A stretch of 61,339 nt of DNA from a virus. Taxonomy: Duplodnaviria > Caudoviricetes. Within the stretch, counting starts at the first letter, position 1. Each line of letters opens with the position of its first letter. The position numbers and the translations under genes are program-made. Below, one piece after another: positions 3,340 through 56,627 of the stretch. The stretch covers positions 1 to 61,339 of the IMG/VR virus record IMGVR_UViG_3300021959_000036. One strand, given 5' to 3'. The notes beneath the pieces are model-generated. The model had not been told where the DNA came from, made no database searches, and saw only the letters and a program-made list of their open reading frames with translations.

Positions 3340-4167
3340 ATGGCAAAAAAGTCCTTAAGTGACTTCGAAACAATAGAGACAGAAGATTCTTCTCCTACCA
3401 ATGCATTTCAAGTAGGAGAAGACGGACAAGCACAAGTAGACCTCCAAAAGATAAGAGAAACTTGTTCTGTATTCTTTGCTACTCCTTGTTATGGAGGCAT
3501 GATTACAGATCAATATTTTCTTAGTATTTTCAAAGCATCTCAAGAATTAGTAAGGCATAATATTACCTTCCGATTAACTACTCTTAGAAATGAAAGCCTA
3601 GTAACTAGGGCTAGAAATATTCTTACTGCAATGTTTTTAGACTCTGGAGCTACTCACCTATTTTTTATTGATGCTGATATTGAGTTTGATCAAGAGTCTG
3701 TTATTAGGATGCTTGCAATGGATAAACCAATTATTGCAGCAGCATACCCTAAAAAGGCTCTTCCAATTCAATATGCTATGAATTTTAAATATACCGATCC
3801 TGTTAAAAAACAGATTAGAGTAGAAAACGGGGCTATCGAAGTGTGGGACGCCTCTACAGGATTCTTCTGTATTAAGCGCGAAGTTTTTGAGAAGATGATG
3901 GTAGAATATCCACACCTTCACTATAAGAATGATAGTAATATTGATCCTAAACTTCAGAAATACTGCTATGCATTTTTTGATACAATGATTGACCAAGATG
4001 AAAACGGAGACAATCGTTATCTTTCAGAAGACTATACTTTCTGTAGATTGTGGCAAAAAATGGGAGGGGAAATATGGATGGACCCAAATACAAAACTAAA
4101 CCATGTAGGGTCTTATACTTTTGAAGGGGATCTTAGTAAGATCATAAATACAAATATTCGAGGATGA
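3340..4167 (+). CDS. GT-A fold glycosyltransferase-like protein
   Basis: ATPCYGG, RARN, FIDAD (DxD), GFFCIKREVF, SEDYTFC, HVG motifs. Confidence 0.75.
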   Translation: MAKKSLSDFETIETEDSSPTNAFQVGEDGQAQVDLQKIRETCSVFFATPCYGGMITDQYFLSIFKASQELVRHNITFRLTTLRNESLVTRARNILTAMFLDSGATHLFFIDADIEFDQESVIRMLAMDKPIIAAAYPKKALPIQYAMNFKYTDPVKKQIRVENGAIEVWDASTGFFCIKREVFEKMMVEYPHLHYKNDSNIDPKLQKYCYAFFDTMIDQDENGDNRYLSEDYTFCRLWQKMGGEIWMDPNTKLNHVGSYTFEGDLSKIINTNIRG

Positions 4168-4652
4168 AAGTAGGGTTTACTTGTTCAACATTTGATTTAC
4201 TACATGCAGGACATATTCAAATGTTAAGAGAAGCAAAAGATCAATGTAATTATTTAATTTGTGGACTTCAAGTAGATCCTAGCCTTGATAGACCAGAGAA
4301 AAACTCCCCAGTGCAATCTATTGTAGAAAGATATACTCAGCTTAACGCAGTAAAATACGTTGATAAAATAATTCCTTATTGTACAGAAAGAGATTTAGAA
4401 GATATCTTAGAAATGTATAATATAGATGTAAGAATTATAGGGTCAGAGTATAGAGATGGTAACTTTACTGGAAAAGCTATCTGTGCTAAAAGAGGTATAG
4501 ATTTATATTTCAATAGCAGAGATCATAGATTTAGTTCAAGTGATCTTAGAAAAAGAATCTATGATCAAGACGCAAATGTGACGTCTTATGAAAATAGCGA
4601 ACTCCGTTCGCCCAGCTGTGTCTCTCCGAGACAACGTGAAGGAACATCGTAG
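4164..4652 (+). CDS. cytidylyltransferase, TagD/glycerol-3-phosphate cytidylyltransferase-like
   Basis: FDLLHAGH (HxGH) and SSSDLRKRI motifs; ~30-aa non-conserved tail overlaps a structured DNA element. Confidence 0.85.
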   Translation: MKVGFTCSTFDLLHAGHIQMLREAKDQCNYLICGLQVDPSLDRPEKNSPVQSIVERYTQLNAVKYVDKIIPYCTERDLEDILEMYNIDVRIIGSEYRDGNFTGKAICAKRGIDLYFNSRDHRFSSSDLRKRIYDQDANVTSYENSELRSPSCVSPRQREGTS

Positions 4653-4746
4653 GTCAGCGCTCTTTAACAGCTGTTCACCTGCGGTGTTCGTTTTTCACTA
4701 ATTATGCACATAGAATAGCATACTTTTTGCCTTTCGGCAAGTATGT
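4567..4746. other. GC-richer multi-hairpin structured element
   Basis: Inverted repeats AAGACG/CGTCTT, GCGAAC-TCC-GTTCGC (4597-4611), TGTCTC-TCC-GAGACA (4619-4633), CACC-TGC-GGTG (4676-4686), TTGCC-TTTC-GGCAA (4727-4740), plus long-range pairings. Confidence 0.6.
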
Positions 4747-4783
4747 AAAATAAAATTTTTTCTTTGCTCTTTCTGGTGCTACG

Positions 4784-4817
4784 TTGTAACAAAATTGTAA
4801 CATAAATGTGATATATT
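4784..4817 (+). promoter_or_regulatory. candidate Pho box plus -10 element
   Basis: TTGTAAC-AAAA-TTGTAAC (4784-4801, 11-bp period) ends 10 nt upstream of TATATT (4812-4817); operon contains a PiT permease. Confidence 0.55.
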
Positions 4818-4821
4818 TATA

Positions 4822-5268
4822 ATGAAAATAAAACATATTCATGCTCATATGAAATCTGCTTTTAACTATGCAGAGTGTTCCACAGCCGTCCGTCTTCAGG
4901 TCGGCTGTGTTATTGTGAAAGATGATCGTATTATCTCAATAGGATACAATGGTATGCCAAGTGGTTGGGATAATAAATGTGAAACCTCAGTGATTTGGGA
5001 TAAAGGTGTGCAGTTAGCTAGTCCTATTCTCAAAACTAAACCAGAAGTACTACATGCAGAATCAAATGCTATAGCTAAACTGGCACGATCACCTGAGAGC
5101 GGAGAAGGCGCTACAGCTTTTATTACTCACGCTCCTTGTCTAGATTGTGCAAAACTTCTGTATCAAGCTGGTATCTGTGAAGTAAACTATTGTCATAGCT
5201 ATAGACTCACAGATGGAATAGATTTTTTAAAACAGTGTAATATTAAGGTTTATCAGGTATCTCTATGA
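4822..5268 (+). CDS. dCMP deaminase
   Basis: IGYNG, HAE and PCLDC zinc-binding motifs. Confidence 0.92.
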   Translation: MKIKHIHAHMKSAFNYAECSTAVRLQVGCVIVKDDRIISIGYNGMPSGWDNKCETSVIWDKGVQLASPILKTKPEVLHAESNAIAKLARSPESGEGATAFITHAPCLDCAKLLYQAGICEVNYCHSYRLTDGIDFLKQCNIKVYQVSL

Positions 5269-18233: not shown

Positions 18234-18759
18234 TAAATTAGAATCTAACTGGAAAAAAGGACTAAGAGAAACTGAATTTAAATTCATAGAATGGATAATA
18301 AAAAATGAAAGATATGATTTATTTAGAAGTAAGCAGCCTAGAAAAAATTGGATTAGAGAAACTCTTTTAGAAAAGAAGTGTGCTTCTAAGTTTAAAACAT
18401 GCAATACTCTTGTTATGGTTGGGTCAGGAATGTATCCATATAGTTTGGTAGATTTAAATAAAGAGTACCCTAACATGAAAATGATAGGAATTGATTTTGA
18501 TGAGAAGTGTGTAAAAATTAGTCAGTTCCTAATAAAGAAAAGTAGAATAAAAAATTTAGATATAATTCACATGGACGGAAAAGACTATGACTATTCTAAT
18601 CTAGAACACGAAGATTTAGTATTTTTTAGTATAGATGTTGTAGGAATAGATGGTGTTTTTCAAAAAGTTATAGAAACAAGTAAGGCGCAGCCTTTTATCT
18701 GCGCCCCGGGTAAACATGCTTGGTTTAAAAACTCTTTTGGTGATTATTTAAAAAGTTAA
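18208..18759 (+). CDS. class I SAM-dependent transferase, nicotianamine synthase/CntL-like
   Basis: VMVGSGMYPYS resembles NAS FIGSGPLPLTS; IGIDFD motif II; DG motif. Confidence 0.55.
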   Translation: MPDKLKTFNKLESNWKKGLRETEFKFIEWIIKNERYDLFRSKQPRKNWIRETLLEKKCASKFKTCNTLVMVGSGMYPYSLVDLNKEYPNMKMIGIDFDEKCVKISQFLIKKSRIKNLDIIHMDGKDYDYSNLEHEDLVFFSIDVVGIDGVFQKVIETSKAQPFICAPGKHAWFKNSFGDYLKS

Positions 18760-46247: not shown

Positions 46248-46700
46248 TTATATATTTAATTGGTATCTTGCTAAAATATCAATCTCTAGTATGCCAAAGG
46301 GAGCTACTAAACCTTCATCTGTAGAAACACCTTCTATTATCATATCCAGTATTCCAATACTTGATCTATCTCCTAAGTTGTATACAACATGTTCTATATC
46401 ATCTGCTAGACTTTCTGCGGTTGTTATAGGGTTTTCTGCTCTAACGTAGGAACGAACATTTATGTTTAGTTCTCCAGTAGTTAATCCTGCGGTATCATAA
46501 ATTCTGGTTTCTGTACCTGCATTTACGCACACTGTAGGAAAATCATTTATTTCGTCTAAAAATATCATACGACGAAAGCAATTATTAGAAATGTTTAAGT
46601 TATAGGTATATGAAGCGTCAAATGTAGAAACATCACCATTTATCTTCTTTAGCTCAGATACCAATAACTCGGTTATATCTTTTCTTCGACTTAACGCCAT
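46248..46700 (-). CDS. tail terminator protein
   Basis: FLDEINDFP, TDEG..APFG; position upstream of tube gene. Confidence 0.8.
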   Translation of the reverse strand: MALSRRKDITELLVSELKKINGDVSTFDASYTYNLNISNNCFRRMIFLDEINDFPTVCVNAGTETRIYDTAGLTTGELNINVRSYVRAENPITTAESLADDIEHVVYNLGDRSSIGILDMIIEGVSTDEGLVAPFGILEIDILARYQLNI

Positions 46701-46719: not shown

Positions 46720-46748
46720 AGTATAGCAAATTGACTTTTATAAAGCAA
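46720..46748 (-). promoter_or_regulatory. sigma70-like promoter
   Basis: TTGCTT-17 nt-TATACT with TG extension. Confidence 0.6.
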
Positions 46749-56338: not shown

Positions 56339-56344
56339 TTACCC

Positions 56345-56623
56345 TCATTTCAAATAATTAGCTAAAGCTATACCAAGTCCTGCAACAGCACCAGCTACAG
56401 AGCCTACCCAGATTAGAGTTTTTAGGCTTATACGACCAGAAGTTGCCATAATTTTCAGTTCATTGATTTCTTTGTGCATTTCTGAGATAGTTTTTGACAT
56501 AGCTTCCATGTTCTTTAACAGCTGTTCATACCTCTCTTGACACACAGCTTCATGTCTAGAAAACTCTAGCTTAGATTGTTGTGTACGTTCATGTAGGGTG
56601 TCAATATTTTCATTAATGTCCAT
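56345..56623 (-). CDS. coiled-coil protein with C-terminal TM (XhlA/holin-like)
   Basis: HEAVCQERY coiled coil plus hydrophobic C-terminus. Confidence 0.55.
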   Translation of the reverse strand: MDINENIDTLHERTQQSKLEFSRHEAVCQERYEQLLKNMEAMSKTISEMHKEINELKIMATSGRISLKTLIWVGSVAGAVAGLGIALANYLK

Positions 56624-56627
56624 TGTT

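Follow-up and report, generated by a model that had tools for sequence, protein, structure and literature searches.

What does a cluster of short hairpins with nearly identical loops do at positions 4567-4746 of IMG/VR virus record IMGVR_UViG_3300021959_000036, and does it act as RNA or as DNA? The record, a stretch of 61,339 nucleotides from a tailed phage (Caudoviricetes), was analysed at its full length and is referred to below as the window. The initial annotation of this stretch had offered two options, a folded single-stranded DNA (ssDNA) element and an antisense structured non-coding RNA. The present analysis favours the second, with a probability of about one half: the cluster would form the body of a small non-coding RNA gene of ~100-120 nt on the minus strand, a reading that draws on a predicted minus-strand promoter, a terminator in some lineages and a polarity of its own, and that is better supported than the ssDNA option. 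As far as its sequence and distribution tell, the element is a conserved, single-copy module of abundant, uncultured marine T5-like phages, and it constitutes a new, well-bounded family of non-coding elements, found in ~100 contigs and absent from Rfam and from cultured phages. If it is RNA, it represents a new class of phage small RNAs with an unusual triloop signature; as the loops obey the rule for stable DNA mini-hairpins, the locus also provides a test case for RNA versus extruded DNA in a large double-stranded DNA (dsDNA) phage.

All four minus-strand hairpins of the initial annotation, designated here H1, H2, H3 and the fourth hairpin (Table 1), are present as described, and so is the GC-richer island in AT-rich DNA, with a GC content of 0.45-0.52 over 4550-4699 vs 0.30-0.31 just upstream and 0.23-0.30 downstream. 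The 61-kb window contains 99 perfect triloop hairpins of at least 5 bp, three of which have a C-TNC-G or C-GNA-G loop. H1 and H2, 22 nt apart, are two of these three, and block shuffles yield a mean of 1.1 and a maximum of 3 such hairpins per whole window. The hairpins as a genome-wide signal were ruled out, since they form one locus only in the window. The third hairpin of this type (AAGGC-GCA-GCCTT on the plus strand, 18682-18707) is located where the plus- and minus-strand gene blocks converge; read on the minus strand, it is flagged as terminator-like.

Table 1. Hairpin element and adjoining features, in window positions
Feature	Positions	Strand	Remarks
Hairpin H1	4597..4611	-	GCGAAC-GGA-GTTCGC; 4596-4612 with G.U extension, then AUUUUCAU
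Hairpin H2	4619..4633	-	TGTCTC-GGA-GAGACA
Linker, variable part and conserved part	4634..4675	-	family consensus TGTTCAACAGCT on plus; palindrome AACAGCTGTT in the window's subgroup
Hairpin H3	4676..4686	-	CACC-GCA-GGTG
5' leader of predicted RNA	4687..4705	-	AUAAUUAGUGAAAAACGAAC; putative start ~4705, placed from the -10 position
Predicted extended -10 element	4712..4720	-	TGCTATTCT; TG 4720-4719, hexamer TATTCT 4717-4712
Predicted -35 element	4735..4740	-	TTGCCG; TTG 17 nt upstream of the -10 hexamer in all 73 distinct sequences
Fourth hairpin and T-run	4719..4762	+	inner stem TTGCC-TTTC-GGCAA 4727-4740 (minus-strand reading TTGCC-GAAA-GGCAA); outer stem CATAC/GTATG
Left-boundary motif	4567..4587		AAGACGCAAATGTGACGTCTT; family consensus AGAC(A/G)(C/T)A..TGTGACG; 6-bp inverted repeat in the window
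TagD-like cytidylyltransferase gene proper	4164..4589	+	Pfam CTP_transf_like, E 3.7e-14; 141 codons in close relatives
Read-through tail of the window open reading frame	4590..4652	+	intergenic in relatives; not conserved coding
Promoter-like site for dCMP-deaminase gene	4795..4823	+	TTGTAA-N17-TATAAT; conserved in the window's subgroup

Conservation of the structure with covariation in related phages was borne out most strongly for H1 and H2, whose 5-8 bp stems show perfect Watson-Crick pairing and come in at least 11 (H1) and at least 6 (H2) different sequences. In a model-fitted alignment of 78 distinct rows 99.5% of 1027 cells pair, and double changes are seen at 8 of the 10 H1 and H2 pairs (120 cells), four of the five pairs in each hairpin; none of 500 shuffles reached the observed covariation score, and slid controls pair at 31-45%. 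The fit of this alignment leans towards the model; the MAFFT/RNAalifold view agrees for H2. New H2 stems (GCTTC/GAAGC and AAAAAC/GTTTTT) were found in a sample of 80 loci retrieved through the sbcD-like gene and unbiased for the element (the SbcD-anchored sample). H3 is invariant in the samples selected with it, where it was fixed by the search patterns, and it is intact in every H2-anchored locus that extends that far; in divergent members from the SbcD-anchored sample it covaries as well, as ACAC-TCT-GTGT with three compensatory pairs (L380) and as TCAC-TAC-GTGA (L403), occurs with the tetraloops TGGC and TGCC, and is absent from one locus (L429). The loops are nearly always C-TNC-G on the plus strand, that is, C-GNA-G on the minus strand, or C-GNNA-G, with every base seen at N, the exceptions being the TCT loops (AGA on minus) of L404 and of H3 in L380. 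The fourth hairpin is optional: of the 73 distinct sequences, 25 have it with the loop C(GAAA)G, C(GTA)G or cGGAg, 8 have a stem with a different loop, and 40 lack any stem of at least 4 bp.

The wider pairings proposed in the initial annotation fared less well. The enclosing pairing CAGCTGT/ACAGCTG exists and shows compensatory changes in two lineages (GCTAT/ATAGC and GTTAT/ATAAT), but fails in others and does not appear in the RNAalifold consensus. The second, between TGAAAA..GCGAAC and GTTCGTTTTTCA, is confined to the closest relatives of the window, and no alternative pairing is conserved, so the suggested switch with two partners for GCGAAC was not upheld. A column-pair scan returned long-range candidates only by chance-like single types. 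A large folded RNA was rejected, as single-sequence minimum free energy folds disagree between members and RNAalifold keeps the local hairpins alone.

The family was delimited by pattern scans of IMG/VR, which led to ~100 contigs and, once chance matches within coding sequence had been taken out, 73-78 distinct sequences; L111 and L120 were dropped, and a single metagenome hit was retained (among the matches listed in the metagenome scan, one of 17 new distinct sequences past the first filter, L346, is genuine). A covariance model (R1) built on 71 distinct sequences gave exactly one match per source in 100 of 100 IMG/VR contigs, a single match in the window, at 100.1 bits, and one strong match in a 100%-complete genome of 117 kb. 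In the SbcD-anchored sample the element is located at most 4 kb upstream of the sbcD-like gene, on the same strand, in 58 of the 80 loci. Of the 22 misses, five have less than 700 nt of upstream DNA, and five records checked among the misses contain one copy each elsewhere, two of these records being at least 91% complete. No blastn match of three versions of the element to 50,697 cultured-phage records exceeded chance (19-28 nt). Searched against Rfam 15, as had been suggested at the outset, the window has no gathering-level match, and only chance-level similarities with E of at least 0.35 at 4400-4900, and four family loci of three subtypes have no match with E up to 0.1; ARAGORN found no tRNA or tmRNA genes in the window. 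Two local duplications were observed: the H1 hairpin (ATGCAC-TCC-GTGCA) is present in two copies at ~1735-1800 of L376, and the stretch following TAGCATA, downstream of the element, is duplicated in L123.

The strand is indicated by a promoter signature. On the minus strand the window reads TTGCCG-N14-TGC-TATTCT, the sequence signature of a sigma70 extended -10 promoter, and TTG-N17-TGnTAnnnT is found on that strand in 70 of the 73 distinct sequences, the other three keeping TTG, TG and TA; neither the TTG nor the T at -7 was part of any search pattern, and the -35 hexamer is free to vary at positions 4-6. The minus-strand extended -10 reading holds in the natural variants TAGCAC and TAACAT, and divergent members have a repositioned equivalent, TTGAAC-N16-TAAAAT or CAAAAT. 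The predicted promoter points leftwards into H3, H2 and H1. Matches to TTG-N17-TGnTAnnnT number 7 in the whole window vs 4.2 expected. A plus-strand promoter, TTCAC-N16/17-TAGCAT, was considered and is weakened by natural variation, with TAGCAC variants losing the T at -7 and TATCAC variants losing the -35 element; the minus-strand promoter is preferred because the minus reading explains which bases are invariant. Another candidate upstream, TAGACA-N17, was discarded, its -10 element not being conserved. A second site of the extended -10 type, TTG-N17-TGCTATACT at 46720-46748 (minus strand), is intergenic and lies upstream of a minus-strand open reading frame (ORF) at 46248-46700, an indication that the phage uses promoters of this type at other places too.

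Terminator signatures are found in part of the family. In the RNA version of H1 (H1'), the window has 7 pairs including a G.U, followed by AUUUUCAU, and is flagged as terminator-like on the minus strand. In L442 and L444 the H1' stems are GC-rich and 8 bp long; the hairpin reads GCGGAGAC-GGA-GUCUCCGC, with UAUUUUAUU after it, or GCGGGAAC-GUA-GUUCCCGC, with UAUUUUUUAU after it, and both versions are canonical intrinsic terminators, as judged by stem and tail. The polarity of the element is its own. In G006-G008, a divergent copy is found between two small lysine-rich genes on the opposite strand, with the internal order kept (TTGAAC-N16-TAAAAT/CAAAAT, UGAACA repeats, H2', H1'). The plus strand of the element is thereby antisense to the flanking genes in G006-G008 and sense in the window, and since the element keeps its order where the flanking genes lie on the other strand, its polarity is autonomous. 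Very lysine-rich small ORFs, of ~57 and 70-72 aa, flank the element in L442 (1280-1888) and L444 (1202-1801). The left-boundary motif of L442 is the palindrome GTCACA-AG-TGTGAC, which in the divergent lineage is located between the element and the next ribosome-binding site (RBS).

Under the favoured reading, host sigma70 RNA polymerase would bind the extended -10 promoter at 4740-4712 on the minus strand and transcribe leftwards from near 4705 through H3, H2 and H1. At its 5' end the RNA would have a short, conserved segment that contains (G/U)UGAA(C) repeats, followed by H3', a linker of ~45 nt, and then H2' and H1', each hairpin carrying a C-GNA-G loop; with H1' and AUUUUCAU as the intrinsic terminator in the window, its length would be ~115 nt. 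For the RNA predicted in the window (4705 to 4588), folding gives -34.9 kcal/mol (z -2.3) and a centroid in which all three hairpins are present. Downstream of the promoter, the minus strand of the window has no plausible ORF start. Such an RNA would be antisense to intergenic sequence and to the read-through part of the TagD-like ORF, and its transcription would converge with that of the genes upstream. It might act on the plus-strand polycistronic RNA as a cis-antisense RNA or an insulator; alternatively, its GNA hairpins and UGAAC repeats might bind a protein or act in trans. The sequences themselves show the conservation, the covariation, the promoter signature, the terminator signatures of some lineages, the single copy per genome and the autonomous polarity; that the RNA is produced, where it starts and ends, and what it does are inferred.

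Several observations weigh against this reading. In the commonest subtype H1' has a poor U-tail or none: of 43 distinct variants of H1' plus tail, 16 have at most two U in 8 nt, as is the case in many type-A members, so that the 3' end either depends on the lineage or is located further on. G.U pairs are almost absent from the stems (2 of 1027 cells), and the tetraloops GCCA and GGCA of H3 (minus strand) fit the DNA motif GNNA, not the RNA motif GNRA. The fourth hairpin shares the loop rule, yet lies upstream of the predicted start and outside the RNA, and RNAalifold retains no structure beyond the local hairpins. Folded with RNA and DNA parameters, as had been suggested at the outset, the 171-nt stretch 4580-4750 is lower in energy on the plus strand than on the minus strand, at -55.8 kcal/mol (z -4.2) vs -47.1 (z -2.0) for RNA and -29.9 kcal/mol (z -4.4) vs -26.0 (z -2.7) for DNA, so that energy alone favours the plus strand. 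Among the gene starts of the window no target better than shuffled sequence was found, the best duplex having -32.4 kcal/mol vs a shuffled-seed mean of -30.1. Thirteen RNA-library runs contain parts of the stretch as contigs, which could include DNA; the four runs examined cover the element at low depth and indicate presence only, without strand or ends, and uncovered bins in these contigs carry no meaning.

Some of these observations are better accommodated by a DNA-level explanation, which we regard as unlikely although it comes first among the alternatives. In this case the inverted repeats would extrude as C-GNA-G or C-GNNA-G mini-hairpins on the minus DNA strand and mark an origin or a primase or helicase entry site, and the minus-strand promoter would provide transcriptional activation or an R-loop whose displaced strand carries the stable hairpins. 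According to PMC13037366, only GNA gave mini-hairpin DNA out of 64 triloop sequences tested, GCGNNAGC forms with a G-NN-A tetraloop are named as well, and mini-hairpins are known from N4 early promoters, from RSF1010 ssiA and from the origin of G4. In N4, according to PMC4496689, extrusion requires a closing C:G pair together with G at the 5' and A at the 3' end of the loop, and single-stranded-DNA-binding protein (SSB) spares the template-strand hairpin. In the element, the C:G pair that closes the loop and the first and third loop bases are invariant, the middle base is free and stems are 5-8 bp long, in agreement with the requirements for mini-hairpin DNA and for N4 extrusion given by the two sources (PMC13037366, PMC4496689). 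All four hairpins of the window have minus-strand loops of the mini-hairpin type (GCGNAGC/GCGNNAGC), and so do nearly all members, tetraloop H3 variants included and L404 and H3 of L380 excepted. The GNNA fit of the GCCA and GGCA tetraloops, the adherence of the optional fourth hairpin to the loop rule outside the predicted RNA and the strict Watson-Crick pairing point in the same direction, as do the presence of one copy in every genome checked, divergent lineages included, and the position of the element in the replication gene module beside very AT-rich DNA (GC 0.23 at 4750-4849).

The lack of wobble pairs is, however, weak evidence, because transversion swaps, which would not pass through G.U intermediates, make up most of the stem changes. 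No GC-skew inflection was detected at the element, the AGA loops of L404 and of H3 in L380 break the GNA rule, and the DNA parameters of Vienna do not favour the minus strand. No cluster of C-TNC-G or C-GNA-G hairpins is present in the D12 regions of T5 and Vibrio phage Thalassa, and the T5 nick site in the D12 region is unrelated to the element. A literature search on a T5 origin with hairpins or on phage GNA triloops yielded no relevant work; the 'Rad' of T5 is a protein.

The element was also compared with N4 virion RNA polymerase (vRNAP) promoters. In both cases a stem of 5-7 bp is closed by C:G on one strand and carries a 3-nt loop with 5' G and 3' A (N4 features as given in PMC4496689). 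The element lacks the N4 set of base contacts (-11 purine, -10 G, -8 G, +1 C): the purine at -11 and the G at -8 are not kept, the equivalent of -8 being A (H1) or T (H2) in the window, and the loop centre is T or C in many members. Three hairpins at one locus contrast with one per early operon in N4, and the phage is T5-like. No RNA-polymerase match was found among the 15 window ORFs scanned (Pfam/PHROGs), a set that leaves out the two largest ORFs (2065 and 1734 aa). The G4 origin and RSF1010 ssiA resemble the element in that short GNA or GNNA hairpins of very high stability are clustered on one strand (PMC13037366); unlike the element, they act on single-stranded genomes or on displaced strands of known origins, whereas here a predicted sigma70 promoter is part of the module and an origin role is putative. 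In its most specific and somewhat more doubtful form, the DNA-level explanation holds that the module is a transcription-activated replication origin of a dsDNA T5-like phage, its promoter firing into three inverted repeats. The non-template (minus) strand may then fold into SSB-resistant C-GNA-G or C-GNNA-G hairpins that hold a bubble or R-loop open, and the hairpins may serve as primase or helicase entry signals. If the element acts as DNA, it would point to the replication start of a lineage without a known origin, and if it is an origin of this kind, the hairpin logic of N4 promoters and of G4/ssiA would operate at the origin of a large dsDNA phage.

Improbable as well is an interpretation of the cassette as the promoter and 5' leader or attenuator of a minus-strand operon, which in G006-G008 would control the downstream genes for small lysine-rich proteins. 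It is consistent with L442 and L444, where H1' is found ~45 nt upstream of an RBS and the start of a 57-aa ORF on the same strand, with the palindrome GTCACA-AG-TGTGAC between them. In the lineage of the window, by this view, the cassette came to be directed towards plus-strand genes and would yield no more than antisense transcription. However, ~100 contigs keep the cassette intact without a downstream ORF; because a relic would decay, the cassette must be able to work without a downstream gene.

Slightly less credible still is a plus-strand mRNA element, in which C-UNC-G hairpins in a polycistronic RNA between the upstream genes and the sbcD-like gene would act as stability, processing or RNA-binding-protein sites, the fourth hairpin being a terminator or an RBS mask. 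The better folding of the plus strand, the co-orientation with the sbcD-like gene in 58 of the 80 SbcD-anchored loci and the flanking ORFs, the nearest of which are nearly all on the strand of the element in 73 contexts, agree with this view. In the window, moreover, the fourth hairpin and its T-run, located in the spacer of the minus-strand promoter, resemble a plus-strand terminator for the upstream genes, and elsewhere in the family the hairpin includes a G.U pair on the plus strand and masks GAAAGG ahead of the ATG. The view is contradicted by G006-G008, in which the element is inverted relative to both flanking genes and their mRNA carries C-GNA-G, and it offers no plus-strand explanation for the TTG/TGnTAnnnT pattern; to our knowledge UNC triloops have no special property. 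Palindromic dsDNA operators for a dimeric regulator, suggested by arms of 5-7 bp around a 3-bp centre and by TTCA(A/C) repeats at offsets 0, 11 and 32 in the conserved part, are very improbable, given that the arms differ among H1, H2 and H3 of one genome and change freely between genomes while the asymmetric centre is conserved, the opposite of an operator.

Two further classes were rejected. The plus-strand sequence GCTCTTTAACA at 4659-4669, which we take to resemble the boxA of rrn and lambda, could belong to a lambda-type nut site, but occurs only in the window's subgroup, the other members having CTTGTTCAACA or GTGTTCAATA. A CsrA/RsmA-sponge RNA would agree with the GGA loops of the window, but large subfamilies have GUA, GAA and GCA loops.

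Among known phage systems, the small RNA reading is closest to lambda oop RNA and P22 sar RNA, small antisense RNAs with their own sigma70 promoter and an intrinsic terminator. The predicted transcript would likewise be short and non-coding; it would be made from a promoter of its own, lie antisense to a convergent operon in an intergenic or 3'-end region, and in some lineages end at a hairpin and U-run. Unlike these RNAs, to which it has no sequence or Rfam relation, the element has three hairpins with invariant C-GNA-G loops, covers no ribosome-binding site, and has a weak terminator in the commonest subtype. PeSL cassettes of T4-type phages, which consist of an early promoter and a stem-loop flanking variable genes, share with the element the combination of promoter and stem-loops at a boundary with different accessory genes on either side; the element differs in being single copy per genome, in its conserved loops and in a promoter that points back into the hairpins.

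The genomic setting bears on the boundaries of the module. The record has a completeness estimate of 53%, so that the window is about half a genome. Pfam and PHROGs scans of 15 ORFs identified a gp32-like SSB, a helicase, SbcCD-like D12/D13 proteins and a ribonucleotide reductase; the D12 homologue has 33-37% identity with D12 proteins of T5-like phages, the major tail protein is ~30% identical to T5-like counterparts, and by several of its proteins the phage is judged to be a distant T5-like siphovirus. The hairpins had been described as overprinting the tail of the TagD-like gene, a view that had to be revised. The 93%-identical relatives L004 and L005 have a TAG stop where the window has TAT (4587-4589), and the window ORF runs 21 codons past it, through H1 and H2. 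The tail is therefore a read-through of intergenic DNA past a lost stop, and the annotation is corrected accordingly, the gene being 21 codons shorter in relatives. For most relatives the protein match to this ORF ends at residues 132-145. The element is not tied to the TagD-like gene, since only 4 of 80 loci retrieved through the TagD-like protein contain it, and genes on both sides of the module vary widely among contigs. In RNA-library run X2, one contig joins 4169 to 4569 with 12 other letters between; it is a relative without the TagD-like gene, in which the end of the glycosyltransferase gene meets the start of the module, and the left edge of the module is therefore placed at ~4569.

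Two repeats were observed in addition. An exact 17-nt copy of 4661-4677 (TCTTTAACAGCTGTTCA, which includes the palindrome AACAGCTGTT) is present at 56512-56528 (E 0.0025), within 56339-56627, a gap flanked by two ORFs of the minus strand, each at least 150 aa long. Downstream of the element, TTGTAAC is repeated in tandem with an 11-bp period (4784-4790 and 4795-4801), the second copy supplying the -35 element of the TTGTAA-N17-TATAAT site, and the repeat is kept in the window's subgroup as TGTAAY repeats.

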